Assembly (NCBI GenBank): GCA_963780345.1
Contig: CAWABU010000002.1
Coordinates: 595,512 to 659,511 of the forward strand
Reading direction: 5' to 3'
Length of the DNA: 64,000 nucleotides
Source: an uncultured Acidimicrobiaceae bacterium
GTDB taxonomy: Bacteria > Actinomycetota > Acidimicrobiia > Acidimicrobiales > Palsa-688
The translations under genes were made by a program, and so were the position numbers. Of the stretch, positions 11,298-55,713 are shown piece by piece. The notes under the pieces are model-generated. The model was given only the letters and a program-made list of their open reading frames with translations. It had not been told where the DNA came from and made no database searches. The first letter of the stretch is position 1. Each line of letters starts with the position of its first letter.

Positions 11298-11370
11298 AGC
11301 CCGAGAGCGGAATCGAACCGCTGACCTACGCATTACGAGTGCGTTGCTCTGCCGGCTGAGCTACTCGGGC
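11298..11370 (-). tRNA. tRNA-Thr (anticodon CGU)
   Basis: Manual cloverleaf: acceptor GCCCGAG/CUCGGGC, D-stem GCUC/GAGC, anticodon stem ACGCA/UGCGU with loop CUCGUAA, T-stem AGCGG/CCGCU with loop UUCGAUU, discriminator U. CCA is not encoded. Confidence 0.85.
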
Positions 11371-11455
11371 CTGAGCTGCTCTTTTATGCTTAACTCACCC
11401 GACGATAGCACCTCTTGGACATGCTTTTGGACGTATGCTCGGTTCGGAGGAGAAG

Positions 11456-39367: not shown

Positions 39368-40630
39368 CTAGGGAAGGAAGGCCAGGAAGGCCCCGCTATT
39401 CACCTTGCTGCCACCGCCGCCACCGCCTCCACCACTCCCCGCAGCCACCGCGACCTCGAGGTCGATGTAGTAATTGTCGCCGTCGTTCTCGACCGTATTG
39501 GGGTAGACCCACGAGCCGCTCGAGTCCTGGGCGCAGGGGGTCAGCGGATTCGGTTGAAGGCCGCAGGGGACGCACGCAATGATGCCATTCCCAGCCCCAT
39601 GGGCGGCACCGATTCCCTGCGACGGGAATCCCCCTCCGTTGGTCAGCCAGTAGCCCTGATCGCCCGAATACCACACGTAACCCGGCGTGTACATGCCGGT
39701 GGCGACCCGATAGTTGTGGTTGGCCTTGAGGGTAAGTCCGGTCGACGAGTAGTCGCAATAGCACCACCCATCGCCCGGGGCCGCGGCTGAACCGTTGGGC
39801 AACACCCACTTCGGTGATTCGGTTACCGAACCAGGCACTACCTGCTGCGTCGCCGTGTCCCAGATCCCACAGATGCTCGGTAGTTTCCCGTTCCCGGTCT
39901 GCGACATGAACCACAGTTTGAGGACCTGACCCGGCTGGGACAAGGCGATCTGGGTCGAGACGGTGAAGGGGAGCGCCGCCTCGGGGGGGTAGAGAGGGTT
40001 TGGCTGGTTTGGCCAGCACCGATAGGTGATTCCGGCAGGGACCTGGTCGGTGACCTGCATGTCCATCCACAGGTTGAGTCCGTTGTAGGTCAATCCGGGA
40101 TAAACGGAGCTTGGATCGAGGGTGTTCTCCTGGTACGTCGAGTTGCCCGGCTGGAAGAAATCGACGTCGCTCTGGTTGCCGGAGGTGGCGTCGGCGAAGG
40201 CAAAGAGCGGTCCGTTGGCGATGCCCCGGGCGTAGATGCCACCCGCGCCGAACTGACCATTGGTGGCCGGAGCATACCGAGGAGACGCCGTCGCCGCCCG
40301 GTAGGCGATGTACTGCGTCAGCGGAATGGGTGCCGGCAGTGGAACGTAATTCCATTGTCCGGCGAGAAGGGTGCCAGACGTGACGACGGAATTCTGGACG
40401 AGCGTCCCGTACTCGCCCTTTTGGTCGGCATCGCCCGTGTCCTGCCACAGACAGAAGGTCTGCGGGGCGGTCGATTGTTGGGAACCACAGACCCACCACC
40501 AGTAACCCTCGAAGTACATGGTGTTCTGGGTCAACCAGAATCCGGTCGCCGACACGAACTCGACGCCTGCGCCAAAATCAACCGGAGTGGTCGGGCCGTC
40601 TGTGCCCGGGAACAGCCGGTAGGCCGTCAT
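39368..40630 (-). CDS. DUF4082 tandem-domain protein (no signal peptide)
   Basis: Two copies of the DUF4082-like pattern (..FEGYWWWVCGS..TFCLWQ..GQWNYVPLPAPIPL..YIA..). Paralogous to the C-terminal two-thirds of 40645-42453. Ends in a poly-Gly tract. Confidence 0.55.
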   Translation of the reverse strand: MTAYRLFPGTDGPTTPVDFGAGVEFVSATGFWLTQNTMYFEGYWWWVCGSQQSTAPQTFCLWQDTGDADQKGEYGTLVQNSVVTSGTLLAGQWNYVPLPAPIPLTQYIAYRAATASPRYAPATNGQFGAGGIYARGIANGPLFAFADATSGNQSDVDFFQPGNSTYQENTLDPSSVYPGLTYNGLNLWMDMQVTDQVPAGITYRCWPNQPNPLYPPEAALPFTVSTQIALSQPGQVLKLWFMSQTGNGKLPSICGIWDTATQQVVPGSVTESPKWVLPNGSAAAPGDGWCYCDYSSTGLTLKANHNYRVATGMYTPGYVWYSGDQGYWLTNGGGFPSQGIGAAHGAGNGIIACVPCGLQPNPLTPCAQDSSGSWVYPNTVENDGDNYYIDLEVAVAAGSGGGGGGGGSKVNSGAFLAFLP

Positions 40631-40644
40631 CGTCGACTCATCTA

Positions 40645-42453
40645 TCAGCTCGCGGTGACTTCGATGTCAACCCACAAGTTCTCGCCGTTGCCGGCCGGGT
40701 TGTAGGTCAACGGGTAAGCCCACGAGCCGAGGTTGTACGTCGCCTGGCCCGGGGCGGTGGCCCCGGAGGTCCCCGGCGCGGCCAGCGGACCGTTGACGAT
40801 ACCGCTGGCGGCCGGGCCTCCACCTCCCCAATAGCTGACGGCGGCGTGGTACCACTGCGCGCCGCCGGCAGAGAACACCGCTACCTTGTAATCACCGGCG
40901 GGCAGCGTCACGCCACTGTAGGCGCACGAGACCCATCCGGAGGCGGCCCCGCCCGACCATGAAGGGGCGGCGTTGTCAGTGCCTGCGACGACGGCCTGGG
41001 TGTTGACGTTCCATATCGCGCACCGCGTCGGGAGCACAGCGGCGCCCGTGGCCGAGTAAAACCAGATGCGGTCAAGGCTGCAGGGCTGCGACAGTTGGAA
41101 CTCGGTCGCGACCGTGTAACCAGCTGTGTCGGAGGACGCGGTACCCGGCAGGACGGGATAGTTGGGCCAGAGCCGGTACGACGCTCCCTTTGGAGGGGTT
41201 GTCCCAACCTGAACGTCCATCCAGAAGTTGGCCGACTGATAGTTGTTGTTGGGCATGTTGGCGGTGGGATCGGTGCCGGCCGTGCTGAAGAGTCCCTGCC
41301 CCATCTGGAAGAGGTCCGGTCTCGATCCCGACCCGTCCGAGTAGGCCACTATCGGACCACTGGAGATTCCGGCAGCATATGGTTGGCCCGAGCCGAACTC
41401 CCCACTGGAGATAGGAAAGCTGTCGCTGAAACCGGTTGACGCCACATATGTCGCATTGGGTGCCAGCGCGACGGGCGCCGGCAGGGAGATGTAGTTCCAT
41501 TGGCCGGGCGTCAGGGCGCTCGAGGTCACCGAGGCCGTCGCGACCACGGTGCCGGCTCGAGGTCCGGAGACCTGCCAGAGGGCGAATCCCTGAGCAGCCG
41601 TGCTCTGACCTGAGGGGCAGACCCACCACCAGTAACCCTCCAGCCAGGTGCCTCCGGTGACGGCCTCGAACATGATGCCGGCCAGAAACGGCCCGGCGTA
41701 GGACGCCGGTGCCGAGGGCCCGTTCGTCGCCGAGAAGAAGCGGAACGTGCCCGATGGCGGCGGGGCGCTGGCCGAGCTGAACCCCAGGGCGTACGCCACC
41801 AGGAGCCATTTGCCCATCGCCGCGTTGTAGATAAATGCCAACAGGTCGGTCTCGCCGGCGGCGGTGCTCAGGGCGGGCTGGGGCAGACCCGTTGAGAACA
41901 GGTAGCTGCCGCCCCAGGTCAGCGTGAAAGCGCCGCCGGCACCCTGCGTCACCTGGAACACGATCTTCTGGCCGTCAGCCGGGTTCGCCGGGTTGCCCAT
42001 GGCGCGATCGCCGGCGATCGCGACGCGAAAGTCGTTGCCCAGAGAGGCGTCGACGGCGATGATGGCGGCGTCGCTGAGGGTGACGACAGAGGGGGCGATG
42101 GCGCCGGTTTCGGTGACGGTCGCCGCCGACGCTGGTGACGTGAAGGTCTCCGTCAACACCGCTCCTCCAGCCACACCGGCGGCGGCGATGCCGACGGTCT
42201 TGAGCATGCGCCTCCGGCTCCAGGCCCGGTCCGGGGCGGCTGTCTCCGGGAGGGCCGGCTCCGGGAAGAGAGCCTCCGGGAGGGCAGGCTCGGGGAGGAG
42301 AGGCCCCGGGGCGACGGACTCCGGGGCGACGGGCTCCGGGGCGACGGACTCCGGGGCGACGGACTCCGGGGCGACAGACTCCGCGAGGACGGGATCGTCG
42401 GTCGAGGGGCTCGAACCTGATCCTCGGCCCCGAATCAGCAATCGCTTGTTCAC
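40645..42453 (-). CDS. TAT-secreted protein: unknown N-domain + 2x DUF4082
   Basis: Twin-arginine motif SRRRMLKTVGIAAAGVAG preceded by (ESVAP)n repeats. The N-domain is homologous to 42490-43071. It is followed by WLEGYWWWVCPSGQ..ALWQV.. and a second DUF4082 copy. Confidence 0.65.
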   Translation of the reverse strand: MNKRLLIRGRGSGSSPSTDDPVLAESVAPESVAPESVAPEPVAPESVAPGPLLPEPALPEALFPEPALPETAAPDRAWSRRRMLKTVGIAAAGVAGGAVLTETFTSPASAATVTETGAIAPSVVTLSDAAIIAVDASLGNDFRVAIAGDRAMGNPANPADGQKIVFQVTQGAGGAFTLTWGGSYLFSTGLPQPALSTAAGETDLLAFIYNAAMGKWLLVAYALGFSSASAPPPSGTFRFFSATNGPSAPASYAGPFLAGIMFEAVTGGTWLEGYWWWVCPSGQSTAAQGFALWQVSGPRAGTVVATASVTSSALTPGQWNYISLPAPVALAPNATYVASTGFSDSFPISSGEFGSGQPYAAGISSGPIVAYSDGSGSRPDLFQMGQGLFSTAGTDPTANMPNNNYQSANFWMDVQVGTTPPKGASYRLWPNYPVLPGTASSDTAGYTVATEFQLSQPCSLDRIWFYSATGAAVLPTRCAIWNVNTQAVVAGTDNAAPSWSGGAASGWVSCAYSGVTLPAGDYKVAVFSAGGAQWYHAAVSYWGGGGPAASGIVNGPLAAPGTSGATAPGQATYNLGSWAYPLTYNPAGNGENLWVDIEVTAS

Positions 42454-42489
42454 GGTGTGTTCCCTCTCAGATCGGGGGCTAGGAGGTGA

Positions 42490-43071
42490 TCAGCCGAACC
42501 CATTTACGAACGCCGCCAGCAGCCAGTTTCGATTGGCCGCGTTATAGAGAAAACCCAGCAGGTCGGTTTGGCCCGCCGCACTGCTGAGCGTCGGCTGGGG
42601 GAGGCCGGACGAGAACTCATAGTTGCTCCCCCAGGTCAAGGCGAACGGTCCCCCGGCTCCCTGGGTGATCTGGAAGATGATCTGCTGACCCGGTGCCGGA
42701 TTGGACGGGTTGCCCATGATGCGATCGCCGCCCAGAGTCAGGCGGAAGTCGTTGCCGAGCGACGCGTCCACGGCGACGGTCGGCGCGTCGACCAAATGGA
42801 CCACCGCAGGCGCGACCGCTCCCTGCTGGGTGGTCGTCTGGGCGGATGCCGCGGTGGGTGCCGCCTCGGCCAACACCGACCCGCCGGCCACGCCGACCGC
42901 GGCCAGCCCGACTGCGGCCGTGAGGATCCGCCTGCGGCTCAGGGCCTGATCTCCGTCCGTAGCCGCTTCCTCCGGATCTGCGCTCGCGGCGCTCGCCGCG
43001 ACCTTGCGCCGATCTGCCAGCCGTCGTCGATCTGCCAGCCGTCGTCGATCTGCCAGTGATCGTCCCGCCAT
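42490..43071 (-). CDS. TAT-secreted stand-alone N-domain paralogue
   Basis: TAT motif SRRRILTAAVGLAAVGVAGG. The segment TQQGAVAPAVVHLVDAPTVAVDASLGNDFRLTLGGDRIMGNPSNPAPGQQIIFQITQGAGG aligns residue-for-residue with the N-domain of 40645-42453. It is preceded by (RRRLAD)x3. Confidence 0.55.
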   Translation of the reverse strand: MAGRSLADRRRLADRRRLADRRKVAASAASADPEEAATDGDQALSRRRILTAAVGLAAVGVAGGSVLAEAAPTAASAQTTTQQGAVAPAVVHLVDAPTVAVDASLGNDFRLTLGGDRIMGNPSNPAPGQQIIFQITQGAGGPFALTWGSNYEFSSGLPQPTLSSAAGQTDLLGFLYNAANRNWLLAAFVNGFG

Positions 43072-43347
43072 GGGTCTCCTCTCTCCAGCCGATCAGCCCG
43101 ATGCCCCAAAGCGCACCGCGTTCGACGGCGCGCCGTCACTGCCTCTCATCGTGCCAGTCTCGGCCCGGCAGGCGGCGTTCGGCCTCATCGTCCTCGTGCT
43201 CCTTACCGCTCCCTAACCTTTGGCCCGACGTCACGTAGAGCGTGACGATCGGGCGCAGATACGGTGAGTTTCCGGTGGAGGCAGGCCAACCGTGGATTCA
43301 GGGGCCCAGTTCCACGGTTCGGGCCGGAAGCGAGGTGCCGCGGGGCC

Positions 43348-44631
43348 TCAGACCGCGCCTTCTCGCCGGTTGACCACCGATTCGGAGTCGGTGAGAGCAG
43401 GCCCCGCGGCGAGGGGTCGACGCCCCGCCGCGGTTCCGGCCGGATTTCCCATCGCGAACTCGTAGATGGACAGCAGCTGCCGGACGTTGTCATCCGGATC
43501 GAACCTCGACTCGTAGGCCCGGCGCGCTTGACGCCCATACCGCTCATAGCGGTCGGCTGACCTCTCCGCGTCATGCAGCAGCCCGGCCAGACTCCCGGCG
43601 TTGCCCGGCTCGAACAGCCGGCCTTCCTCCCGATCAACGAGCAACTCGGGGAACGCGCCGCTGGCCGGGGCGATGAGCGCTACGCCGGCCGCCATGGCTT
43701 CGACCACCACCAGACCGAATGGTTCCAACCACTCCGCCGGAGCGACGGCGACCCGGGCTGTGGCCATCAGGGCGCGACATTCCTCGGGGCTGAGCAGGCC
43801 GGCCACCACCACGTCGGAGCGGTCTCTGGCCCATGCCGACACGGCGTCGCCAAGCGGACCGGCACCGGCGATGACCAGACGCAGGGGGCGTGCTCCGGCC
43901 TCGGACGAGTAGCGGTCCCATGCCGCCATGAGGAGCGGAACCCCTTTGGCCTCATCCAGGCGTCCCGCGAATACGACGGTGTCTCCCGCCGTGGATCTCG
44001 GCGGAGGCGGGTCGACGAACGGCACCAGATTGGACTTGACGAAGACCCGGTCGTCAGGAAGGCCAAACGGGGCGAGGAGGTCACGCTGGGACCGGGACAG
44101 GCAGATGTAAGCGGAAACCATCGTCCGCCAGGCGTGACGGTGGGCATGTCCAGCCACTGCGACCGGCACCGTGGCCAGCTTCGATCCCCGGTAGCAACCG
44201 TGCCGGATGGCCGGCGCCGGCAGGTGCCCAACGCAGTCGGTACAGGTGGCGCCGTCCCGGAACAAGCTGCCCGACGCGCACAGCAGACGATAGTTATGGA
44301 GCGTCACGACCACGGGCACGCGCTCTCGGGCGCACGCGTACAGGACCGACGAGCTCAGCAGCGGGTACACATTGTGGACGTGGACCACATCCGGGCGATG
44401 ATCTCTGAGGGCGGCGATGAGGCCCCGGTAGGCGTCCTGACTCCACAGGACGCGCCCGGCCACCAGGGTTCGTCTCGCCAGCGGCCAGGTCTCGATGACG
44501 TCGCTCGAACGTTCGAACTGCTCGACCTCGTGTCCGTGAAGGCGCAGGCTCCCGGCCTCCCGGTCAACGACCCGATTTTCGCCGCTCGGTAGCGACGAGC
44601 GGTACCGGTTATGGACCTGCAGGACCTTCAC
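43348..44631 (-). CDS. GT4-family glycosyltransferase
   Basis: VKVLQVHNRY N-terminus, and the EX7E region ..EPFGLVVVEAMAAGVALIAPASGAFPELL.. . GTG start chosen at 44629-44631. The ORF extends to 44703. Confidence 0.8.
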   Translation of the reverse strand: MKVLQVHNRYRSSLPSGENRVVDREAGSLRLHGHEVEQFERSSDVIETWPLARRTLVAGRVLWSQDAYRGLIAALRDHRPDVVHVHNVYPLLSSSVLYACARERVPVVVTLHNYRLLCASGSLFRDGATCTDCVGHLPAPAIRHGCYRGSKLATVPVAVAGHAHRHAWRTMVSAYICLSRSQRDLLAPFGLPDDRVFVKSNLVPFVDPPPPRSTAGDTVVFAGRLDEAKGVPLLMAAWDRYSSEAGARPLRLVIAGAGPLGDAVSAWARDRSDVVVAGLLSPEECRALMATARVAVAPAEWLEPFGLVVVEAMAAGVALIAPASGAFPELLVDREEGRLFEPGNAGSLAGLLHDAERSADRYERYGRQARRAYESRFDPDDNVRQLLSIYEFAMGNPAGTAAGRRPLAAGPALTDSESVVNRREGAV

Positions 44632-45018
44632 GAAGAACTCCTCGATGGTCGGTCGGATGAGATCTGATGGGGGCCGACGCCGCCAGCTGCTCGCGACCGA
44701 CAACCCCTACCGGGAGTCTCGCCCTCGGAGCCCGGGCGGCTCCGCGCCACTCCACCACCGGGAAGGAGGGCCCAGCGCGGGCCGTGATACGGGCCCATGT
44801 CGTGACCGTCGAGAGCTGGACCGGCCCGCGCCAACCAGCCCAGGACCGTTCCTGTGGCAGCTGTTGACCGGAAGTTGTTGGTTCCTGGTGAGCCAGTGGA
44901 TGGAGCCCGATCAAGATCGTGCCCGTCGAAGCGTTGGATGAAGGGGTGTAGCCACGATGGGTAAACCGTGGGATGACGACGGGGCCGCAGGACTGTGGCC
45001 CGTCGGAGGTGAGGCATA

Positions 45019-45687
45019 GTGTCCGTTTCTCTCTCAGGAGCGACGGCTCCGATGACCGAGGACAGTCGGACGCTCCAACTTGCGACCGACTCGAACGAAG
45101 GGTCTCGTAGTTCTGACCAACCCGACGTAGCCAGGCTGGTCGCGGCGGCCGCCTCGGGTGATGGAACCGCATGGAATGCGCTGGTCGACAAGTTCTCGCC
45201 AACGGTCTGGGCGATTGCCCGGGGCCATCGGCTCTCGTCGGCCGACGCCGCGGACGTGTCACAGACGACGTGGCTGCGACTGGTCGAGAACCTGCATCGG
45301 ATCCAACAGCCGGAACGGGTAGGCGCCTGGTTGGCGGTGACGGCGCGCCGCGAGTCATTGCGGGTCCTGCGCGTTGGCGCCCGCCAGACGCCCACGGGCT
45401 ACGACTTCGACGTCCTGCCGGCTCCGGTGCCCGTCCGGCCGCCGGAGCACGCCATGGCCACCCAGGCGTGGGGAGCCGTCGTCGCCGAGCTGGTCCAGCA
45501 ACTTCCGACCCGGTCGCAGGTGTTGCTCCGGCTGCTGAGCGCGGACTCGCCGCTCAGCTATCGAGATATCAGCGAGGCCCTGGACATGCCCATCGGCAGC
45601 ATCGGTCCTACCCGGGCCCGAGCCCTCGAGCAACTCCGCCGGCTCGCGGTCAAGGCCGGGATCAACCCGGCTGACGTTTTCACCTGA
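45019..45687 (+). CDS. ECF-subfamily RNA polymerase sigma-70 factor
   Basis: Region 2 (..VWAIARGHRLSSADAADVSQTTWLRLVENL..) and region 4 HTH (..LSYRDISEALDMPIGSIGPTRARALEQLRR). Confidence 0.8.
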   Translation: MSVSLSGATAPMTEDSRTLQLATDSNEGSRSSDQPDVARLVAAAASGDGTAWNALVDKFSPTVWAIARGHRLSSADAADVSQTTWLRLVENLHRIQQPERVGAWLAVTARRESLRVLRVGARQTPTGYDFDVLPAPVPVRPPEHAMATQAWGAVVAELVQQLPTRSQVLLRLLSADSPLSYRDISEALDMPIGSIGPTRARALEQLRRLAVKAGINPADVFT

Positions 45688-45879
45688 GGAGGCCGGCCCG
45701 TCCCGCGGGTCGCGGTGCGGTGACTTTCCGCGGTTAACCGTGGACAGTCACCGGTTTGCGATGTCCTCGCCCCTCTTTCCGTATCAAAGTCCCATTTGTC
45801 GCCTCTGAGCAGCGAGAAACCACTGTTCACCTATTCGAGATCTCACCACCCCTGGTGATATTCGGCCCCGGAGACCCGA

Positions 45880-46587
45880 TTGGCCTGCACCGAAGCACAA
45901 ATCCTCCTACCAAGGCTCATGGAGCCGACGGACGGTGGCGGCCGCCCCGGCTGGCCGATCTCCGTGCTGGTGCTCGACCCCCAGACTCTCTTCCGGACCG
46001 GCATGGCGCGGCTGTTGAGCGAAGACGACCGCCTGCTCGTGGTCGGGGTGTCCGATGGCGGAGATGACGTGCCCGAACGGTGCGCCTCTCAGTCCATCGA
46101 CGTCGTCCTGACCGATATCGAGATCCGCCAGTGGAGCGCGGTCGCCCTCACCCGGAGCATCGCCGCCGTCTCGCCGGACACCCGGGTGGTCATCCTGGCC
46201 TCCACCGTGGACTGGCGGGTCCTCCCGGCGATGGCCTCGGGGGCAGCCGGCTTTCTGGTCAAGGACACCGAGCCCGAGGCCTTGAGGTCCGCGGTACTTT
46301 CCGCCCACCTGGGTGAGCAGGTTCTCTGCCGGGAGGCGGCACGATGGCTGCTGCAGGACGAGCCCGACTATCGCCTGACCCGCCGCGAACACGATGTGCT
46401 CGGGCTGATGGCCGAGGGAGCCGGCAACAGTGAGATCGCCGACTCTCTCCGACTCGGCGACAAGACGGTCCGCAACTACGTGAGCCGTCTGTATCGCAAG
46501 CTGGCCATGCACGACCGGGCCGAGATCAGCTCACTGGGGCTTCACACCCAGGCCGTGGCCGGCCAGCACCGGGAAGCCAGGCCATGA
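45880..46587 (+). CDS. NarL/FixJ-family response regulator (REC + LuxR HTH)
   Basis: REC domain with the acceptor Asp in VVLTDIEI. LuxR HTH LTRREHDVLGLMAEGAGNSEIADSLRLGDKTVRNYVSRLYRKL. Confidence 0.8.
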   Translation: MACTEAQILLPRLMEPTDGGGRPGWPISVLVLDPQTLFRTGMARLLSEDDRLLVVGVSDGGDDVPERCASQSIDVVLTDIEIRQWSAVALTRSIAAVSPDTRVVILASTVDWRVLPAMASGAAGFLVKDTEPEALRSAVLSAHLGEQVLCREAARWLLQDEPDYRLTRREHDVLGLMAEGAGNSEIADSLRLGDKTVRNYVSRLYRKLAMHDRAEISSLGLHTQAVAGQHREARP

Positions 46588-47931
46588 GAGAACAGCCCCT
46601 GGACCTGCGGTCCTCGCTCGGCGCCCTGCGCCGCCGGTGGACCGTCATCGTCGCCCTGGCGGTGGTAGGCCTCCTGGGCGGGGTCGTCTTCGCCAGCCTC
46701 CATGTTCCGCAGCCCCGCGCCGCCGCCCAACTCGTGCTGCCCACCACGACGGCGTCGGGCGCCGACGTCACCGCGACCGACACCAAGACCCAGGTCGCAA
46801 TTGTCACCAGCGGCGTCGTGCTGGCGCCGGCGGCAAAATCGGCGAAGCCCCCGATCGCCCTCGACCAGCTGGAGAAAGTCGTGTCCGCCGGCGCAGTGGG
46901 CAACAACATCCTCCGCATCGAGGCCCGGGCTCCGACGGCCGGACGAGCAGTCCAGCTGGTCGCCGCCGTCACGAGCCAGTACCAGACCTACGTCAAAGCC
47001 CACCCCGCCGTGGTGCACGGGACTCCAGTAGTCATCCAGAGCCCAGCCGCGGTGACCCCGCCTTCCACCACCTCGCTCCTGTTGAAATACGGCTTGCTCG
47101 GCCTGGTCGCCGGACTGCTCGTGGGCGTCGCTGTGGTCCTGATCCGGGCCCGCCGGGACCACCGGCTTGCGCCAGCGGGACCAGATCGCGGGTGCCATCG
47201 GCGTGCCGGTCCTGGCCTCGCTGGAAGCCGAGCACTACAAGAGCGTGTCCGACTGGATTCGGGTGCTGGAGCGCTTCGACCCTTCCGCCATGAAGGCCTG
47301 GACCCTGCGCCGCGTCTTGCGGAACCTGATCCCCACCGATCTCGAAGGCCAGGCCACGATTCACGTGGTCTCCTTCGTCGGCGACCGGGCGGCCCTCGCC
47401 ACCGGTCCGGAGCTGGCCCTCTTCGCCGCCGGATCCGGCATTCCGACCCGACTGGCGCCCGACGAGAACGTGGCCCTCGAGCCTCTGATCGCGGCGTGCG
47501 CCGCCCTCCGGACTTCCATCCATACGGATCAGTTGCTCTCGTTTGGCACCGAGACCGAAACGTGGCACGGACCGATGGGGCGGCCGATCCGATGGGATGA
47601 CGATCCGGCCCTGGTCGAGGCCCATCTGGTCGTCTCCGTGGTCGCCGTGGAGCCCTCGCGGCCCGAGCTGACTTCGATCGTCGGACCCACCATCCTGGCC
47701 GTCTCCTCCGGGTTCGCGGTGGTCGACGACCTGGCCCGGGTGGCGCTCGCCGCCACCAAGGCCGGACTCGGGATTGACGGGATTGTGGTGGTCAACCCTG
47801 ACCCGGGCGACACGACCACCGGCTTGCTGCCCGATCGCATGGCCGGCGGCTGGCGGGCCCACGACAGCGGTGCGCAACAGGGCCCGGGATCGACGGCCCA
47901 TCTGACAGGAGGAACGACGTGGCGGGCATAG
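46584..47931 (+). CDS. Wzz/CapA-like polysaccharide co-polymerase fused to a P-loop-less BY-kinase-like domain, interrupted by an apparent frameshift near 47160
   Basis: Frame 0 (46584-47190): TM1, periplasmic domain, TM2 and RARRDHRL. The continuation (R)QRDQIAGAIGVPVLASLEAEH.. and a ~250-aa CapB-like domain lacking GKT are in frame 1 (ORF 47167-47931). Confidence 0.5.
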
Positions 47932-48773
47932 ACCACTGGGCGGCCGAAGCGTTCACCGCCGAGGAGTTCGAGGATCCGTTCGATCCCGGTCCCACCGTGA
48001 GCATCCGGTCGTTGAAATCAGCGGTCAAGCGACGGAAGCGGCTGTGGATTGCGACGGCCTTCGCGGGACTGATTCTGGGCGCCAGCCTCCACGTCCTCCT
48101 CCCGAGCAAGGTGGCGGCGGTTTCCAGGCTGTATCTGATCCAACCAGCGGGGGCCGACCCGACCATCGCCATCACCAATGACCTCAACCTGCTCGGGACT
48201 CGCACGGTGGCGGTCGCCGCGTCGGGCGTACTGCAGTCTGGCGCCACTCAGCCCCTGACTTCCTACAAGGGGTCGGCCCAGGGCAGCGCCCTGCTGGCGA
48301 TCAAGGCCACCGGCCCGACCGGAACCGAGGCCGCGGCCAGGGCCAACGCCGTGGCCAAGGCCTTCCTCCAGGTTCGCGCTCAGGTCCAGAAGCAGGCGAC
48401 GGACGCCGAGATCACAACGCTCAGCGCCGAAATCCAGTCCCGCCAGGCCGACATGGCGTCATCCAGGAACGCGGCCCAGCAAAGCCAGGACCGGTACCAG
48501 ATCGGGATATTCCAGGACCAGATAGCCCAGGACAAAGCCGGTCAATCTGCGGTGGTTCGCAACAGCGTCGTGCTCGACCCGGCGTATGTCGTGGTGGTGT
48601 CGGCCAAGAAGACCGCCATCAAGGACGGGCTGGCCGGGCTGATCGCGGGGCTCGCCCTCGGCATCACCATCGTGATCCTGGGTGAGTTGCTGTCCGACCG
48701 GGTCCGCGGCCGTTCTGACGTGGCGTCCGCGCTCGGCGCGCCGGTCGAGTTGAGCGTGGGCCGGCTCAAGTGA
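47919..48773 (+). CDS. Wzz/CapA-like chain-length-determinant membrane protein
   Basis: N-terminal TM (LWIATAFAGLILGASLHVLL), a coiled periplasmic domain, C-terminal TM (GLAGLIAGLALGITIVILG) and the RGRSDVASALGAPVEL linker motif. GTGA overlap with the next gene. Confidence 0.6.
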   Translation: MAGIDHWAAEAFTAEEFEDPFDPGPTVSIRSLKSAVKRRKRLWIATAFAGLILGASLHVLLPSKVAAVSRLYLIQPAGADPTIAITNDLNLLGTRTVAVAASGVLQSGATQPLTSYKGSAQGSALLAIKATGPTGTEAAARANAVAKAFLQVRAQVQKQATDAEITTLSAEIQSRQADMASSRNAAQQSQDRYQIGIFQDQIAQDKAGQSAVVRNSVVLDPAYVVVVSAKKTAIKDGLAGLIAGLALGITIVILGELLSDRVRGRSDVASALGAPVELSVGRLK

Positions 48774-49423
48774 CCCGGTGGTGGAAGGCTGCCCGGCTCC
48801 GGCGGCGATTGAACCATCCCACGCCCGCGTTGCAGTTGATCGTGCGGCGGCTGCGGGTTCAGCTCCAGAACGCGCCCGGTGAAGCGCTGGCCCTGGTGGA
48901 GATCGGGTCGGCCGAACCGGCCGCTGTCGCCCTGGCGTCGCTGGCCCACCTCCTGGCGTCGGACGGCCAACGGGTGGTCCTGGCCGACACCGCCGAGGGC
49001 CGCCCCTTGTCCACCCTCGTCCGCGGATCCTGCGAGGCGGGATCGCTCTGCATGGTGTCGGTGAAGGGGCAACCGGTCGGTCTCTTCGTCGCTCCGGCCG
49101 ACCCAACCCGGATGGCGGACCTGGACGCCGGCGAGGACGCCGATGTGGTCCTGGTCCTGGCCAGCATCGATCCCGCCCTGGGCGCGGACCACGTGGCGGC
49201 CTGGGCCGGAGATGCCGTCGTGATGGTACGGGCCGGCGAAGCGACGTCCTCGCGGATCGACGGGGTGGCCAAGCAGCTTCGCGAGGCGCGCGTCCTCATT
49301 CGCTCAGCGGTGCTCATCGGGACCGACTCCGACGACTACAGCTCCGGCCTTCCTGCCCCTCGCCCCCACGGGCCCGACCCTGCCGACCTTCTCCTCCAGT
49401 CCCTCAATGCCTCCGGGCACTGA
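48770..49423 (+). CDS. CapB/BY-kinase-like domain protein lacking Walker A (predicted pseudo-ATPase)
   Basis: Block-by-block similarity to the BY-kinase at 1-996 (ALVEIGSAEP..RVVLADTAEGRP ~ ILVSSPYSNEGKT..RIGVVSCDLRKP; DADVVLVLASIDP ~ FEIVLIDSPP), but GKT is replaced by AEP. About 55% identical to 60208-60872. Confidence 0.55.
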   Translation: MTRWWKAARLRRRLNHPTPALQLIVRRLRVQLQNAPGEALALVEIGSAEPAAVALASLAHLLASDGQRVVLADTAEGRPLSTLVRGSCEAGSLCMVSVKGQPVGLFVAPADPTRMADLDAGEDADVVLVLASIDPALGADHVAAWAGDAVVMVRAGEATSSRIDGVAKQLREARVLIRSAVLIGTDSDDYSSGLPAPRPHGPDPADLLLQSLNASGH

Positions 49424-49429
49424 CGCCGA

Positions 49430-51079
49430 TCAGGGCCGGTAGACACTCTCCTGGTCCTGGGGGGCGAAGCGATCCCCTGAGCCGTTGGTGTTGGTCGTCC
49501 CGGCCGTCCACTGCGACCACGTCGAGAAGTCGCCCTGCGAAAAGGCGACAAACCGCCATGGCCCGTTGTACGTGTTGTGCTCGAAGTGATTGTTCTGCTG
49601 GTTGGAGATGGCGTTGGGGACAACCCAGGCCCGGTATGGCGCCAGGGTGCCGAAGATGCCAAAAAGGGCGTTGTAGCCACACCCGGTGCTGCTGCCCGGA
49701 TGGGCGATGGCCCGGGTGCAAGCGGCACCGAGCGCCGCCGGGTTGAAGTTGAACGTATTGCCGCTGACCGTCACGTTCTGGGTCTTCCACCGACAATTGT
49801 CGAAGTAGTCGGGGTTGGCACCCGGCGTATCGGCCGGCAGGTGCTGGGCGCAGGTGGCCCGCGTGTAGCGGCCTGGTTCGATCAGGGTGCAGACCGCGTC
49901 CACGCTGACCCCGCAAACCCGGCCGGGGCTGTCGTACAGCGTTACTCCACCCCAGTTGTTCGTCAGGACGTTCCCGGCCACGAGAAACTGCCCGCTGTAC
50001 TCGCCAGGTACTCTCCGGTCGGAGCCGGACTCCGAGATGTAGATGGCCGAGCCCGGGAAGTCTGGTGTGTCGTTGTGGGTGCCAGCACCGATGTCATTGC
50101 CGATCAGAGTGTTGTCGGTGATGCGGGCGTTATAGGAGATCTCGTACATGATCCCTTCGCCGTAGTTGTTGGCGATGTAGTTGTGGGAGATGTCGAATCC
50201 GGCGTTGTTGGTGTCCGCCCACAGCCCCGGATCTCCGTTGTCATGGACATAGTTCCCGGTGACGACGCCGCCGATCGTCTCCCAGAACTTGCCGCCGCCC
50301 GCGCAACCACAGTCAGGATTGGCTCCGCCCGGGTGGTCGTACGCACCCGCGGTGTCGTTGTAGGAGATCTCGTTGTTGGTCAGCGTGACGTGCCGGGACT
50401 CAAAGCTGATGAAGCCGTACTCGCCGTTGTGGGTCAGGCAGTTATTCGTGACCGTCGAGTTCGTGCCGACCAGGACGCCTGCCCCATTGACGTTATCCTT
50501 GATCAGGTTGTATTCGATGCGCCAGTTGCTGTAGCCGCCTTCCCCGACGACCGCCGCCCCCTCGCCGGCCATGAAGTCCTCGATCGTCAGATACTTGATC
50601 GTCACGTTGGTGTCCGCAGCCTCGGCGTAGGTGCTGTTGGATTCCACGGCGTAGTTGTTCTGGCCTTGACCGCTCAGGATGGCCCCTGGCGCACCGACGA
50701 AGGTGTCGCCCGGCGCGGCCTGAATCTGGGCGTACGGACCGGAGCCGAGGGTGTGAACGCCCGGCGCGAACCAGTAGACGGTGTTCGGCCGGATGCGATA
50801 GTTGATGACAATTTCGGAGTTGCTGTTGTCGCCGGCGGGAATCGTCACCGCGCCGGTCGGGGGGGTTCGGTAAGGGCTGGTGAACCCGGTTTCGCACCAG
50901 GTCACAGGCGGGGACAGGGGGGCCGCGTCAGCCCCGGTGCCGGGAGAGGGAGAGGGGGGTCGGGCGGAGACGGTCGTCGGGGGTGAGCCGCGGGTCGAGT
51001 CCGCGAACGGCGCGCACGCGGTCAGACCCAGGCCCCCGCCGAAGGCCAGCGCCGCGATCAGAAGAAAGGCGCGCTTCAC
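49430..51079 (-). CDS. right-handed parallel beta-helix repeat lipoprotein (pectate-lyase-fold; putative polysaccharide lyase/hydrolase)
   Basis: Lipobox LTAC after a signal peptide (GTG start at 51077-51079). Repeated NNxIxxN beta-helix rungs (TNNCLTHNGEYGF, TNNEISYNDTAG, SHNYIANNYGEG, TDNTLIGNDIGAG). Confidence 0.7.
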   Translation of the reverse strand: MKRAFLLIAALAFGGGLGLTACAPFADSTRGSPPTTVSARPPSPSPGTGADAAPLSPPVTWCETGFTSPYRTPPTGAVTIPAGDNSNSEIVINYRIRPNTVYWFAPGVHTLGSGPYAQIQAAPGDTFVGAPGAILSGQGQNNYAVESNSTYAEAADTNVTIKYLTIEDFMAGEGAAVVGEGGYSNWRIEYNLIKDNVNGAGVLVGTNSTVTNNCLTHNGEYGFISFESRHVTLTNNEISYNDTAGAYDHPGGANPDCGCAGGGKFWETIGGVVTGNYVHDNGDPGLWADTNNAGFDISHNYIANNYGEGIMYEISYNARITDNTLIGNDIGAGTHNDTPDFPGSAIYISESGSDRRVPGEYSGQFLVAGNVLTNNWGGVTLYDSPGRVCGVSVDAVCTLIEPGRYTRATCAQHLPADTPGANPDYFDNCRWKTQNVTVSGNTFNFNPAALGAACTRAIAHPGSSTGCGYNALFGIFGTLAPYRAWVVPNAISNQQNNHFEHNTYNGPWRFVAFSQGDFSTWSQWTAGTTNTNGSGDRFAPQDQESVYRP

Positions 51080-51237
51080 GCCTAGTGGGCCGGCCAGAAA
51101 CTCGACGCCGGAAACTCGGCAGTCAGAACGCCTGATTGCATGGCGACACCAGGCCGCGAGTTTCCGGCGTCGAGTTCGCAGGCAGCCCACTAGCCCGCGG
51201 CCGGACCTTGCCCGGTGCGGACCTCCCGACGCCGACC

Positions 51238-52140
51238 CTACCGGCCGCGTCTCCACGCGGCACCAATACCGTCGCCGGGCCACCAATGATTGCGAGGCTG
51301 CTCACTGAAGAAGAGGTACTGACGCCCGGTCCGCTCGGCCCAATCGGAGAGGGCCGATGAATCGTGGGCATTGTCAGAGAGAATGATGGCGTCGTCGCGG
51401 AGACGACTTTCGACCGCGGCCAGTTCCCTGGTTTCGTAGTCGTAGGTGTGAAGGCTGTCGTGAAGGAACATGTCCACGCCCTCAGCGCCCGCGAGCACCT
51501 CGGTCGAGTCGCCCGTGCGGCGGTCTATGACCTCAGCCCACGGCCCTCCGATGAGGTACCCGGCCTCCGGATCGATATCGATCGTCGTCAGCCGACCGTG
51601 CCCATTTCGGAGCAGGGCGGCAGCGATGGCACACGAACCAAGGCCCAGGTGGGTGCCGGTCTCGATGATGCAATCGGGCTGCTTGGCCCGGACGAGGGCA
51701 TACCATCCGAGCCGCCGCGCCCACCGCGGCTCCTTCGGGGATATGCCGCGGCGCGGACCGGACGACAATCGATCCGTCAGATGGTCGAAGAGGCCGCGGT
51801 CGTCCTCGAGTTCCTGCATCCACGCCCGCACCTGTTTGACGTCCGCTCCGGATACAGCCGCGACAAACCAGGCCAGCTGGTCACGGTTGAGCGAATCCAG
51901 CTCGTACGTGAAGTTGGTCGTCTCGCGGTCACGGACCAGCCAATCGACCGACCGCCCGATGACGTGGGCATCGTAGCGCGCCACCAGCAAGGTGCGCAGG
52001 GGGAACGCCGCCCCTCTGGCTGCGGATGAGTTTGCGAGCCGGTGTCGGACTCTCGACTGCATGGCGCTGGCACCCTTTGCGACTGTGATCATGGGGTTCG
52101 TGCTCACCTCGTGTGGAAGGTCTTCATTGATGGCGGACAT
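51238..52140 (-). CDS. class I SAM-dependent methyltransferase (TylF/MycF macrocin-O-methyltransferase-like family)
   Basis: ..CIIETGTHLGLGSCAIAAAL.. SAM-binding motif and ..MFLHDSLHTYDYE.. typical of TylF-like enzymes. The start may be internal (52062). Confidence 0.6.
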   Translation of the reverse strand: MSAINEDLPHEVSTNPMITVAKGASAMQSRVRHRLANSSAARGAAFPLRTLLVARYDAHVIGRSVDWLVRDRETTNFTYELDSLNRDQLAWFVAAVSGADVKQVRAWMQELEDDRGLFDHLTDRLSSGPRRGISPKEPRWARRLGWYALVRAKQPDCIIETGTHLGLGSCAIAAALLRNGHGRLTTIDIDPEAGYLIGGPWAEVIDRRTGDSTEVLAGAEGVDMFLHDSLHTYDYETRELAAVESRLRDDAIILSDNAHDSSALSDWAERTGRQYLFFSEQPRNHWWPGDGIGAAWRRGR

Positions 52141-52172
52141 AGGCTACGGGCCGGTGACGGCGTTCTGGCTCC

Positions 52173-53420
52173 CTAATGGGCGGGGTGCGGACTGAGCCAG
52201 AAGCCATCTCGAGCTTCCGACCTGCGGCCGGCGCGGGGGACAAGGAGGGACGCCGCCAGCGTGAGATCGAGCAAGTAGATGGTGGGTTCACCCATCCCCG
52301 TATCGGTGTACGAAGCGAACAGGCAATAGGCGATCAGGAAGAGGGCAAGAGCGCTGGTGGGCCCCCGGGGTCGCAGCAGAGCCGTGATCAAGAGAACGAG
52401 GAAGATGGCCGCTTCGAGAACACAGCCCACGATTCCCTGGTTCTGGTAGGTGGCGACCCAACTGTTGTCAATCGGGAGTCCGTTGTCGACCGTTTGGTTG
52501 ATCACAGAGTCATTGGTCATCCCGGAGCCGAGAATCTTGTTGGTCTCCGGACGAGACTCGGTGAAAACCAGATGCCAGGCGTTGGTACGGCCGGACAGAT
52601 TAGAGAGAGCCTGGGCGTTCTGGCCCCGGACGAGCCACGCCGTGATCGCCGGGGAGAGGGGCACCAGGACGGTCAGGATCACGACCAGAGAAATCGCAAA
52701 GGTCCGGCGAACCCGTTGCTTGGTGACGAACAGGCTCAGGGCTGCGACGAGGAGGCCGACCACGAGGCCGCCCAGGGCAGTGCGCGTGTGCGTCGCGAGC
52801 AGAGCGATGAAGCCCCCGCCAATCAGCAGCATGGCCGGCTTGCGGCGAATCATGCCGCACAGCCACAGCACCACGGTCAAGCCAGTGAGCTCGGCCGTAT
52901 AATGCGCCGCTTGCGGGGCGGTCATCGGCCAAATTACCCCATTGAGCCGAGGGCTGCCGTAGTTCAGAGAAAAGGCCCGGCTCGGCGAGATGAGAATCCC
53001 CAGGAACAACGATCCGAGGATGGCGGTCAGCACCAGGAGCTGACCGCGTAGCAGGACCAGTCCTCGATCCCGGAACCAGGGGGTGAGCAGCCAGATGACG
53101 GCGAGGAAGACCAGAAAGCGAACACTTCTGTAGGTCGTCCCGAGCCCGACGAACCTGACGCTCATCATAAAGGCGAGGAGACCCATCAGGGTGTAGAGGC
53201 CGAGAAACAGATTCGGACGGATGATGCCCTTTCGATTGACCGTCAACGCCACTATCAGCGCGGCCACCAGGGCACCCTGGGTCAGCAGCTGCCCAAACTT
53301 GTGCGGGATAGGAAGCACCAGCGTCGGCTTCGCAAAAGCGAGCGTGTTCAGGAACAGGAGGGCCCAGACCGCGGTGACGTGCCGCAGGCGGCGCCTGTCG
53401 ACGGGGGCCTCCAACTGCAT
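52173..53420 (-). CDS. O-antigen ligase/Wzy-like polymerase family membrane protein
   Basis: About 10-12 TM helices with one large extracytoplasmic loop, in a polysaccharide locus. Start chosen at MQLEAPVDRR. The ORF extends to 53573. Confidence 0.6.
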   Translation of the reverse strand: MQLEAPVDRRRLRHVTAVWALLFLNTLAFAKPTLVLPIPHKFGQLLTQGALVAALIVALTVNRKGIIRPNLFLGLYTLMGLLAFMMSVRFVGLGTTYRSVRFLVFLAVIWLLTPWFRDRGLVLLRGQLLVLTAILGSLFLGILISPSRAFSLNYGSPRLNGVIWPMTAPQAAHYTAELTGLTVVLWLCGMIRRKPAMLLIGGGFIALLATHTRTALGGLVVGLLVAALSLFVTKQRVRRTFAISLVVILTVLVPLSPAITAWLVRGQNAQALSNLSGRTNAWHLVFTESRPETNKILGSGMTNDSVINQTVDNGLPIDNSWVATYQNQGIVGCVLEAAIFLVLLITALLRPRGPTSALALFLIAYCLFASYTDTGMGEPTIYLLDLTLAASLLVPRAGRRSEARDGFWLSPHPAH

Positions 53421-53520
53421 GGGGGCAGGTGCGCTCAGCAAGGTCACGGACCGACTCCTTCCGCCCTGCTGAGAGACGCTGGACGCCGGTTTGATACACG
53501 GCCTTCGCGGACCTCGACAC

Positions 53521-55713
53521 TCACCGTCGTGGTCCGATCGCTCTGCGTGTTCCAGGTGCATCGGTGGCGCCACCGCGAACCCGGTGCAGCTTGGAAGGCC
53601 GGCGCCGCACGAGAGGTTCGCCTACGAGCAGGCCGGACCCACCGTCGAGACGGATCTGGCCGCGCCGGCGAGAAGCGGCGGATGGCCAGTGTCGCCCACC
53701 GGATCGAATTGCAGCGAGGTCGCCAGCCGAGTTGTGGCCGGTACAGATCCCCTGGCCGAGAACGGTCGTAATCGGCTCCCGCTCACCAAAGGCTCTCGAG
53801 TACCAGCCGAGCACGGGGTCGGTTGCTCCCCTGACCAGGGACCAGGTCAGATCGCCCGGCAGCTCCAGTGTGGCCGAACGGCCGCCACTCTCCTGGTCAT
53901 CCCAGTCGAGATGCACCCTGCGACCGTTGATCACGGCGTTCACGGCCGGACCGAGGTGAAAGGCCACCTGCAGCCGATGGGCGCCGCCCGTCCACACCTG
54001 GTCCATGATCTCGATGCGCCTCTCGGCGCTCAGGAGCCGAACCGTGCGCCGATGACGCGCCGGGGGATCGAGCGCGGCGTAGCCATCATGTTCGGCCGAC
54101 CAGTGCGTCACCCGACCTTCGGCGTCGGAGCGAACCTCGAGACATCGGGTTCGAGCCGACCGGATCCAGAGGGTCGGACCACCTGAAGTCGATTGGTCCC
54201 GGCCGGCTATCTCGACGGTGTTGTGCCCGAGCGTGGACTTGAAGTAGCGGCGCCAGCTGGGCTCGCTGCTGTAACAGTAGGTTCCCGGGTCGACCAGGAT
54301 CTCGGTCCCGCCGTGCCGGACCTCGACCGCCAGGGCGTCGGCGTGAGCGTGGGCGGCGATCGACAGGAATCCGTGGGGACCGCCGTCGCAGCGACACCAG
54401 ATTTCGGGACCGTGGCCGGGAACACTTCGCATGATGGTCAGGCCGGCGTCGTCGAAGTGGTCCGGGCGCGGCGAGGGACGTCGCGCCTGCGGGTGGAATC
54501 CGACCAGGGCTGCCACCAGGGTGCTCATGGCGTCGGGTGGGGCAACGGGCCACCAGTCCGCGGCGCCGAATACCGCGGCGCCGAGGGCCAGAAGGCTGGC
54601 CCACCGGTTGGAACCCTGACCTTCGAGCACCAGCGCCCGGCCGTCGTCGCTGTCGCCCTGGCGCGGGGCGTGCAGCTCGATGTCGACGACCGATGCGACG
54701 ACGTCGAGCATGCGGCCCAGCTCTTCCCAGATGCCCGCCGGCAGAACGTAGCCGGCTGTCTCGGCCTCGGCGGCGGCCAGGAGGCCGAGCTCGGCGACGA
54801 AACCGTGGTAGTCAAAAGCCATCTCGCGGTTGACGCCGCTCGGAAACGTATTGTTCGCCAGCTGGTCACCCAGGAGGGCGGCGGCATCAGCCGCCCACTT
54901 CTGACTGTCCTCGAACCAGTTGAAGGCCAGAGCGGCCGCGAGCTGCCCGGCCGCCTCCGCGATCACGTGGTTGTTGGCCGACGACCCGCGACTCTGGAAG
55001 TTGGCCAGGTAGTGCTGGTGCCACCAGATCTGCGCCAACGCGTCGGGGTTGTCTTCGAACAGCTCCGGCGCGCCCGCCCAGCCGTCCAACAACCGGCGGA
55101 CCCATACCCAGGAGATGAGGCGCACTCCGAGCTCTATGCCGCTGGTCCAGTGGATTCCGGACAGGACCGGGTTCTGCCCCCACCACGATCGCAGCTGACG
55201 GGCGGCTCCCTCGGCGTATTTCTCGTCTCGCGAGAAGGCGAAGGCCGCCGCCAGCACCGTCACGTGATGAAGGCGGGACATTTCCCACACCTGCTTGACG
55301 TTGCCGGTTACCCGGGTATCGCGATGATCGACCGAAAAGCAATACTCGTGTTGAGGGGCCCGCGTCCCCGATACCGGATCGAGGAACCAGTCCGGTGCGG
55401 CCACGTCGGGACGCGGCACACCCAGCACGGTCCACCGCCCGGCCAGAATCTCCTCGGCCGCGGCGACAACGGCCTGGCGAGAGTCGCCGGGAACGGCCGC
55501 CAGCGCTCCGGAGGGAAGGATGGCAGTGAACGCGCCAGCCGGGCCGGCCGGGTGGTCCAGCGGCACACTGTCGATCCGGGGCTGCCGGCCCGGGCGGACC
55601 TGGTACCGCATCCAGGCTCGTTGCCGGGCGTAGTCCGACAGGCGCCAGCCAACCTCCTGGAGGGACATCCGCTGAAGCCGCCGGAGGTACCACTCCAGTC
55701 TGGACGTCCTCAC
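53521..55713 (-). CDS. heparinase II/III-like family protein (alginate-lyase-like N-domain + Hepar_II_III C-domain)
   Basis: N-terminus MRTSRLEWYLRRLQRMSLQEVGWRL, the (alpha/alpha)-toroid region with NNHVIAEAAGQLAAALAF, and the C-terminal beta-sandwich with AHAHADALAVEV. The last ~90 aa are low-complexity and overlap the Wzy-like gene. Confidence 0.7.
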   Translation of the reverse strand: MRTSRLEWYLRRLQRMSLQEVGWRLSDYARQRAWMRYQVRPGRQPRIDSVPLDHPAGPAGAFTAILPSGALAAVPGDSRQAVVAAAEEILAGRWTVLGVPRPDVAAPDWFLDPVSGTRAPQHEYCFSVDHRDTRVTGNVKQVWEMSRLHHVTVLAAAFAFSRDEKYAEGAARQLRSWWGQNPVLSGIHWTSGIELGVRLISWVWVRRLLDGWAGAPELFEDNPDALAQIWWHQHYLANFQSRGSSANNHVIAEAAGQLAAALAFNWFEDSQKWAADAAALLGDQLANNTFPSGVNREMAFDYHGFVAELGLLAAAEAETAGYVLPAGIWEELGRMLDVVASVVDIELHAPRQGDSDDGRALVLEGQGSNRWASLLALGAAVFGAADWWPVAPPDAMSTLVAALVGFHPQARRPSPRPDHFDDAGLTIMRSVPGHGPEIWCRCDGGPHGFLSIAAHAHADALAVEVRHGGTEILVDPGTYCYSSEPSWRRYFKSTLGHNTVEIAGRDQSTSGGPTLWIRSARTRCLEVRSDAEGRVTHWSAEHDGYAALDPPARHRRTVRLLSAERRIEIMDQVWTGGAHRLQVAFHLGPAVNAVINGRRVHLDWDDQESGGRSATLELPGDLTWSLVRGATDPVLGWYSRAFGEREPITTVLGQGICTGHNSAGDLAAIRSGGRHWPSAASRRRGQIRLDGGSGLLVGEPLVRRRPSKLHRVRGGATDAPGTRRAIGPRR

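Follow-up and report, generated by a model that had tools for sequence, protein, structure and literature searches.

Predicted BY-pseudokinase modules paired with polysaccharide co-polymerases in an Acidimicrobiaceae polysaccharide cluster

Layout of the two modules

Two paralogous polysaccharide co-polymerase (PCP) modules, each with a domain that resembles a bacterial tyrosine kinase (BY-kinase) stripped of its catalytic motifs, lie side by side in the genome of an uncultured Acidimicrobiaceae bacterium. The window is the whole stretch of DNA that was analysed, 64,000 nucleotides of contig CAWABU010000002.1 (assembly GCA_963780345.1, positions 595,512 to 659,511), with a G+C content of 65-70%. 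Downstream of a gene for a LuxR-type response regulator, four open reading frames (ORFs) follow one another on the + strand at 46584-47600, 47167-47931, 47919-48773 and 48770-49423. The first two make up module 1 and the last two module 2. The closest relatives of the two-module pair come from Acidimicrobiaceae metagenome-assembled genomes (MAGs), at 67% protein identity.

Module 1 begins with a Wzz-like co-polymerase part, PCP1 (46584-47166, + strand), with transmembrane helices at residues 17-43 and 162-191 by hydropathy. PCP1 scores 27.9 bits against Pfam Wzz (PF02706, cut-off 25.5), in agreement with the co-polymerase identity proposed by the first-pass annotation of this DNA, and it also matches TIGR01006 weakly. 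The ORF that contains it (46584-47600, + strand) codes for 338 amino acids, which are Wzz-like until about residue 194 and then turn into Arg/Pro-rich, out-of-frame sequence. The alignment of PCP1 with homologues of 423-444 amino acids (P0003-P0011) runs end to end. The kinase-like domain of module 1, which we call PK1 and assign to family 1, is encoded by the 254-residue ORF at 47167-47931 (+ strand) and includes the juxtamembrane strand IGVPVLASL. This ORF overlaps the next one by 13 nt (47919-47931).

Module 2 consists of a stand-alone Wzz-like protein of 284 amino acids, PCP2 (47919-48773, + strand), and a stand-alone kinase-like protein of 217 amino acids, PK2, the representative of family 2 (48770-49423, + strand). 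The GTG start of PK2 overlaps the PCP2 stop (GTGA), and both ORFs exist as first described, a second CapA-like gene overlapping a separate CapB-like gene. PCP2 has transmembrane helices at residues 42-62 and 233-260 (hydropathy) and scores 19.8 bits against PF02706, which is below the cut-off; TIGR01006 matches across its second transmembrane helix and tail region (E 1.1e-6). Its C-terminal end, ...SALGAPVELSVGRLK, is equivalent to the tail of CapA that contacts CapB, and the break in module 2 directly follows the ...LGAPVxxSVG strand and coincides with that between CapA and CapB. Both PCP parts combine two transmembrane helices around an extracytoplasmic domain with a Wzz profile match, sub-threshold for PCP2 in PF02706, and both are PCPs with short extracytoplasmic domains of about 120-170 residues.

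Fold and motifs of the kinase-like domains

Routine annotation does not recognise the two domains. Neither PK1 nor PK2 has a match in Pfam or NCBIfam, and four of 13 family-2 members gave faint CbiA matches in that scan (best E 0.036). Pairwise BLASTP was not significant for PK1 against PK2 or for PK2 against the true BY-kinase of the window. Profile searches of PDB sequences were also non-significant, though their hits lay in the expected direction (CapAB E 1.7, FtsY 0.18, BceF 0.26). The predicted structure of PK1 (predicted local distance difference test, pLDDT, 70; predicted template-modelling score, pTM, 0.73) has BceF (14.1), Wzc (13.8), CapAB (13.2) and again Wzc (12.9) as its top fold matches, followed by ArsA (10.0). 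Profile-profile comparison by hhalign was weak with the first small alignments (probability 6%) and became significant only after these had been enlarged, from a search of representative sequences and from fetched loci, to 153 family-1 domains, 75 family-2 domains and 59 canonical actinobacterial kinases. Family 2 then matched the canonical kinases with a probability of 96% (E 1.6e-9), and family 1 matched family 2 with a probability of 94% (E 2.8e-8). The model and the profiles together predict a P-loop NTPase fold of the BY-kinase subtype for both domains, and the initial proposal that the MinD/BY-kinase scaffold is kept is borne out by the predicted fold of PK1 and the family-2 match. Modules 1 and 2 are about 20% identical and, judged by sequence, are old divergent paralogues retained as a pair, not the product of a recent duplication. 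The earlier description of duplicated split modules is correct in that two paralogous modules are present; only the second is naturally split, and the first is by nature a fusion.

The catalytic motifs are conserved at 89-100% in the 59 canonical kinases: E-x-x-R-x-x-R, E-G-K-T/S, D-L-R, D-S-P-P...D and a Y-G-Y-G-Y tail. At the P-loop column GK[ST] is present in 59 of 59 canonical kinases, in none of the 153 family-1 domains and in none of the 75 family-2 domains; a regular-expression screen found GK[ST] in a few family members, and on inspection none of these lay at that column. The loss of Walker A expected from aligning the CapB-like domains is thus family-wide. The profile-aligned Walker A columns read GDRAALAT in PK1 and GS---AEPAA in PK2. 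In PK1 the site is occupied by GDRAALATGPELA (47380-47418, + strand). Across family 1 it takes the form D(100%)-x-x-A(90)-L-A-x-G(92)-P(85)-Q(86)-L-A(94), and the Walker lysine column is alanine in 90%. In PK2 the replacement is GSAEPAA (48905-48925, + strand), and the profile alignment sets its AEP exactly under the GKT of the true kinase of the window, as first noted. The P-loop of PK2 is three residues shorter, and the model places the start of helix alpha1 there.

The other motifs have gone or have changed as well. The PK1 sequences aligned with Walker A' and Walker B read LAPDEN and VVAVEPSRP, and Walker A' is lost. The Walker A' region of PK2, VVLADTAEGRP, keeps the first aspartate (D73) at 100% without D-x-R; the Walker B aspartate column holds leucine or a gap, with an aspartate in a shifted position (..LASIDP). 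PK2 also keeps an R-x-x-R remnant of the E-x-x-R-x-x-R helix. A tail with at least three tyrosines per 12 residues is found in 100% of the canonical kinases and in 0% of either family, which confirms that neither domain has a C-terminal tyrosine cluster; within the window, the PK1 tail has no tyrosine and the PK2 tail has one, which is not conserved. Where the canonical tyrosine cluster begins, both families have an acidic tail motif. It reads NPDPGDTTTG in PK1 (47794-47823, + strand; family 1, P-D/E-P-x-D98%-x-T-T-G97%) and GTDSDDYSSG in PK2 (49319-49348, + strand; family 2, D94%-x-x-D96%-E-S-x-G96%).

Walker A, Walker A'/B and the C-terminal tyrosine cluster, which define a catalytic BY-kinase, are all absent from PK1 and PK2. 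A BY-kinase-like structure without the Walker motifs and the tyrosine tail is what defines a BY-pseudokinase, and both domains fit that description. On the sequence evidence the motif loss is ancient and family-wide, with new conserved motifs substituted. ATP-driven autophosphorylation would not be expected of either domain, because the P-loop lysine and the tyrosine tail are absent. PK1 and PK2 are conserved pseudoenzymes and not decaying genes, because the replacement motifs are invariant, family 1 spans 669 sequence clusters, and PK1 and PK2 together show 13 synonymous and 0 non-synonymous differences between the window and a 98.6%-identical metagenome contig, L001.

Relatives, tandem pairing and the frameshift

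A PK1 profile was run against 1.84 billion representative sequences. At E<=1e-3 it matched 669 clusters, defined at 50% identity, and at E<=1e-10 it matched 562. Most of the 669 clusters have lengths of 420-450 or 500-535 amino acids, which are PCP-fusion lengths. In the source databases the names given are 'capsular polysaccharide biosynthesis protein' or 'hypothetical'. The search of species-representative genomes confirmed 124 relatives, and 80 loci were retrieved; all counts of context below refer to those 80 loci with 8 kb on each side. The carriers are nearly all Actinomycetota, the exception being two short contigs binned to a Gemmatimonadales MAG. They include Acidimicrobiales, Streptosporangiaceae, Nocardioidaceae and Trebonia, as well as isolates of Pedococcus, Intrasporangium, Terrabacter and Knoellia. 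A metagenome scan with family 2 confirmed no relatives.

The two families travel together. PCP2 recurs in 73 of the 80 loci and the family-2 domain in 68, as well as in L001. Where enough downstream sequence was available, the family-2 domain lay directly downstream of family 1 on the same strand in 63 of 71 loci; two further loci hold both modules within one ORF, which brings the figure to about 65 of 71. The family-2 domain is fused to its own PCP in 44 of those 63 loci and is a short ORF in 19. Some of the 19 are probably fused too, as ORFs of about 590 amino acids in which a spurious partial match set the start of the domain too low. The window, L001 and two Acidimicrobiaceae loci, L002 and L003, have PK2 as a stand-alone protein of about 217 amino acids, a length shared by most family-2 homologues in the first protein search. 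Two proteins of about 1030 amino acids, P0072 and P0144, have the order PCP1-PK1-PCP2-PK2 in a single chain. Single ORFs of about 1020-1040 amino acids with the same order also occur at L004 (7181-10232) and L009 (7163-10295), a Rosetta-stone-type fusion in some Acidimicrobiales. Many related clusters (L018, L046, L055, L079, L035/L037 and others) have either two family-1/family-2 pairs, as several loci do, or an additional family-2 gene a few kb off on the opposite strand.

The window departs from its relatives at one base. One extra T (CGG CTT GCG, 47166-47168, + strand) separates the PCP1 frame from the PK1 frame: frame 0 carries the Wzz part as far as about 47166, and from 47167 on the kinase-like part is read in frame +1. 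The first-pass annotation had drawn 46584-47931 as one CapA-CapB fusion ORF; the frame change at about 47167 breaks that ORF, and it is the relatives that are in frame as fusions. The window reads CGGCTTGCG where L001 reads CGGCTGCG (CGGC-TGCG), and without the extra T module 1 would code for a PCP-pseudokinase fusion of 448 amino acids. PK1 homologues are proteins of 423-444 amino acids that stay in frame through the junction, ...ARRDHRLRxRDxIAxxIGVPVLAS.... Programmed frameshifting was ruled out, since a slippery sequence is absent and all relatives are in frame.

Module 1 could be a true pseudogene here, with the frameshift a mutation and not a sequencing error and with module 2 alone functional. 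In favour of this, the window does contain the extra T, 145 out-of-frame codons follow the shift in the frame-0 ORF, and NCBI gene calling made the downstream portion of module 1 a separate product of 242 amino acids (P0001). We regard a true pseudogene as possible and rather doubtful. Downstream of the shift, the PK1 frame differs from the insertion-free, 98.6%-identical L001 by 4 synonymous and 0 non-synonymous codons, every other homologue is in frame, the remaining genes of the window are intact, and a T run longer by one base would be a common type of assembly error. Because PK1 shows those 4 synonymous and 0 non-synonymous differences, the extra T is an assembly error or a very recent mutation. 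L001 itself looks like an error-prone assembly. Compared with 40001-54000 of the window it has 23 indels over 14 kb, and its GT4 (glycosyltransferase family 4), beta-helix and DUF4082 genes are broken where those of the window are intact; it lacks the extra T at 47167, yet has a 1-bp insertion of its own within PCP2 (window position about 48547). A separate observation concerns the extracytoplasmic PCP1 (46584-47160), which has 11 non-synonymous and 7 synonymous codon changes between the window and L001; the exposed PCP1 loop may be under diversifying or relaxed selection.

Cluster context and proposed function

The region from 40.6 to 64 kb is, by its Pfam matches, a Wzx/Wzy-type polysaccharide cluster. 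Downstream of the modules, all on the - strand, lie a right-handed beta-helix protein (49430-51286), a methyltransferase (51238-52140), a Wzy-like polymerase or ligase (52173-53573), a heparinase II/III-like protein (53521-55713), the second GT4 glycosyltransferase (55710-56954) and an initiating sugar transferase of the Bac_transf family (56951-58597). Further genes encode a weak flippase-like protein, oxidoreductases and an Asn-synthase-like protein. The upstream part of the cluster holds, besides both modules, a DUF4082 protein, a GT4 glycosyltransferase, a sigma factor and the response regulator. Around related loci a Wzy-like gene is present in 52 of 80, a GT4 in 46, a heparinase-like protein in 55 and a beta-helix protein in 32. 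The recurrence of the last two with the module suggests that the pathway includes, as a constant component, enzymes that modify or cleave the polymer. The setting is a Wzx/Wzy-dependent cluster whose PCPs come without an active kinase, the flippase-like gene being a weak match. The first-pass view of the domains as pseudokinase partners of polymerisation is a fair reading of this cluster, in which they are adjacent to or fused with PCPs.

The run of four + strand genes opens with the LuxR-type response regulator (45880-46587, + strand; Pfam Response_reg and GerE), and the overlap of its stop with the start of PCP1 (ATGA) suggests that the two are co-translated. A sigma-70 region-2 protein (Pfam Sigma70_r2, 45019-45687) lies just upstream of the response regulator. 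Neither regulator is conserved with the module; the two are found beside it in 4 and 8 of the 80 loci. At the start of the receiver domain of the response regulator stands D-P (VLVLDPQ), where an acidic D-D pair is usual; the lysine and the putative phospho-acceptor (VVLTD) are kept.

BY-pseudokinase co-polymerases are an established kind, and the general idea is not new. In Myxococcus xanthus, the BY-pseudokinase EcpK and the kinase-less PCP-2 protein EpsV interact and are required for exopolysaccharide synthesis (PMC12004946). EcpK binds the C-terminus of its PCP-2 partner and functions independently of true kinases and phosphatase (PMC12004946). The holdfast pathway of Caulobacter crescentus has a pseudokinase, HfsB, and a kinase-less PCP-2, HfsA, which in the account given in PMC12004946 bind as EcpK does and are needed for polymer synthesis. 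GumC has been labelled a 'pseudo-BY-kinase' (PMC9800525), and fused degenerate PCP-2a proteins such as SMc01795 of Sinorhizobium were listed by Cuthbertson et al. 2009, as cited in PMC12004946 and PMC9800525. Every case described so far is from a Gram-negative organism, and our literature search found no paper on actinobacterial BY-pseudokinases. No description seems to exist of the actinobacterial families, of their replacement motifs or of the conserved arrangement of two paralogues.

Compared by their descriptions, EcpK/EpsV shares with the present modules a BY-kinase-like fold without Walker A, A', B and the tyrosine tail, a Wzx/Wzy cluster, and the two-protein layout seen in PK2 and PCP2, with a partner PCP that has a short cytoplasmic C-terminal tail. 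EcpK differs in being Gram-negative with an outer-membrane polysaccharide export (OPX) step, in not being adjacent to epsV, and in having one PCP-pseudokinase set per pathway. It is also a trimmed domain without alpha1, alpha2, beta1, alpha6, alpha7, beta4 and beta5, whereas the actinobacterial domains keep the N-terminal helices. HfsB/HfsA, as far as its published summary goes, likewise pairs a stand-alone pseudokinase lacking catalytic residues and tyrosine tail with a kinase-less PCP-2, but it is a single Gram-negative pair without a second paralogous module. GumC (Xanthomonas) and SMc01795, by their secondary descriptions, place PCP and pseudokinase in one polypeptide, as do module 1 and most family-2 members outside Acidimicrobiaceae. 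All proteins of that kind described so far are Gram-negative and have large OPX-contacting periplasmic domains, whereas the actinobacterial ones have short extracytoplasmic domains and form a two-paralogue set. CapA/CapB of Staphylococcus aureus is a PCP-2b protein with an active BY-kinase (PDB 2ved), and CapB has Walker A, A' and B, a tyrosine cluster, autophosphorylation and a cognate phosphatase, none of which applies to PK1 or PK2. Wzc of E. coli and the BY-kinase of the window share the architecture of a PCP with a P-loop-fold domain, and PK1 and PK2 keep the order of the central beta-sheet. In contrast to Wzc and that kinase, families 1 and 2 have lost or changed E-x-x-R-x-x-R, G-K-T/S, D-L-R, D-x-P-P and the tyrosine cluster.

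The pair is probably a phosphorylation-independent PCP-2 system, in which both modules would contribute to one PCP assembly; the pseudokinase domains would serve as a scaffold on its cytoplasmic side and so support Wzy-dependent polymerisation. It would consist of two paralogous PCP-2-type modules whose cytoplasmic BY-kinase domain has turned into a conserved pseudokinase. Module 1 (PCP1-PK1) is normally one protein of about 440 amino acids. The tail of PCP2 probably docks on PK2, because the split is at the same point as in CapA/CapB. The co-inherited modules would most likely form a single ring or scaffold in the cytoplasm, beneath a cage of mixed PCPs, and such an assembly would support Wzy-dependent polymerisation without a cycle of phosphorylation and dephosphorylation, as proposed for EcpK/EpsV and HfsB/HfsA. 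We infer the hetero-oligomer, the docking of the PCP2 tail and a role for the acidic tail motif from gene adjacency, the fusion proteins and the precedents of CapA/CapB and EcpK.

Several points weigh against this scaffold model. The hhalign match of family 1 to the canonical kinases is weak (E 0.001-0.01), and the assignment of family 1 to the BY-kinases leans on a predicted fold of moderate confidence (pLDDT 70) and on the link through family 2. The evidence for a hetero-oligomer from adjacent genes and rare fusions is indirect, and some of the fusions come from Microflora Danica (MFD) MAGs, in which indel errors are possible. Module 1 is frameshifted in this window and may be non-functional in this strain. 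The strongly conserved new motifs at the former active site could mark a different ligand and not an empty site.

This last point leads to an alternative in which the new motifs, D-x-x-A-L-A-x-G-P-Q in PK1 and A-D-L-x-x-G-x-P and G-A-D-H in PK2, allow the domains to bind a nucleotide or some other small ligand and to work as switches under its control. The Walker A substitutes are among the most conserved residues of family 1 (D 100%, G 92%, P 85%, Q 86%), and family 2 retains the first Walker A' aspartate (D73, 100%) and an aspartate near Walker B. However, the phosphate-binding positions lack lysine, serine or threonine, the PK2 P-loop is shortened by three residues with helix alpha1 starting there in the model, and Pfam and NCBIfam recognised no known nucleotide-binding motif. 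We consider such switches quite unlikely.

The true BY-kinase of the window is far from the modules. The C-terminal part of a canonical fused BY-kinase, truncated by the window edge, lies at 1-996 (+ strand; TIGR01007 E 2.5e-50), with NEGKT, VLIDSPP and YYGYGYGYRYG. The GKT and the tyrosine cluster first reported for it stand, and the D-x-D does not, since Walker A' reads S-C-D-L-R and not D-x-D-x-R. In the 59 related actinobacterial kinases the first Walker A' position is S in 50%, C in 30% and D in 16%, and the textbook first aspartate is not conserved in this clade. A DUF4012 protein (1744-3543, - strand) separates the kinase from a low-molecular-weight protein tyrosine phosphatase (LMW-PTP), which is real (PF01451 E 6.8e-17) with ORF bounds of 4167-4796 and not 4239-4796. 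Kinase and LMW-PTP were first taken to belong with the exopolysaccharide locus; they are about 45 kb from the modules, behind unrelated genes. These include genes for a major facilitator superfamily (MFS) transporter, a glycoside hydrolase family 3 (GH3) enzyme, tRNA-Thr and an integrase, an esterase, an OmpA-domain protein, a flotillin, an MMPL protein and a DNA polymerase III delta'-type (DNA_pol3_delta2) protein, among others. The tRNA-Thr (CGT, - strand) is directly beside the phage-type integrase (11435-12607, + strand; region 11297-12607). A search of the window for an att-like repeat of this junction of at least 14 nt found none that would mark an island boundary.

The idea, raised at first, that the pseudokinases act on or compete with this true kinase, for which mixed rings or titration of its phosphatase would be two examples, gains something from the presence of kinase and LMW-PTP in one window and from the frequent pairing of eukaryotic pseudokinases with active kinases (PMC12004946, discussion), but it is very unlikely, as none of the 80 related loci has a canonical BY-kinase or an LMW-PTP within 8 kb, unrelated genes and an integrase part the two loci here, each pseudokinase has its own PCP, and EcpK offers an independent precedent.

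A more specific form of the scaffold model is an obligate mixed ring, in which the former active site of one paralogue, now remodelled, receives the acidic tail motif D-x-x-D-x-S/T-x-G of its neighbour. Such a ring is speculative, and we hold it to be unlikely. If true, it would be a hard-wired, phosphorylation-free substitute for the kinase/phosphatase assembly cycle, one that evolved in monoderm Actinomycetota and that the ratio between the modules might tune.

In the textbook view, Wzy-dependent assembly of capsule and exopolysaccharide is controlled by cycles of BY-kinase phosphorylation, and pseudokinase versions have been shown to work only recently and only in Gram-negative bacteria. 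On the practical side, the domains described here are invisible to Pfam and NCBIfam, and one of them is split by a one-base frameshift in this assembly. They belong to a sizeable, unannotated actinobacterial family of PCP-pseudokinases in which two divergent paralogues are kept together. This family provides a natural system for studying the organisation of PCP oligomers without phosphorylation, with cultured carriers in Intrasporangium, Terrabacter, Pedococcus and Knoellia.

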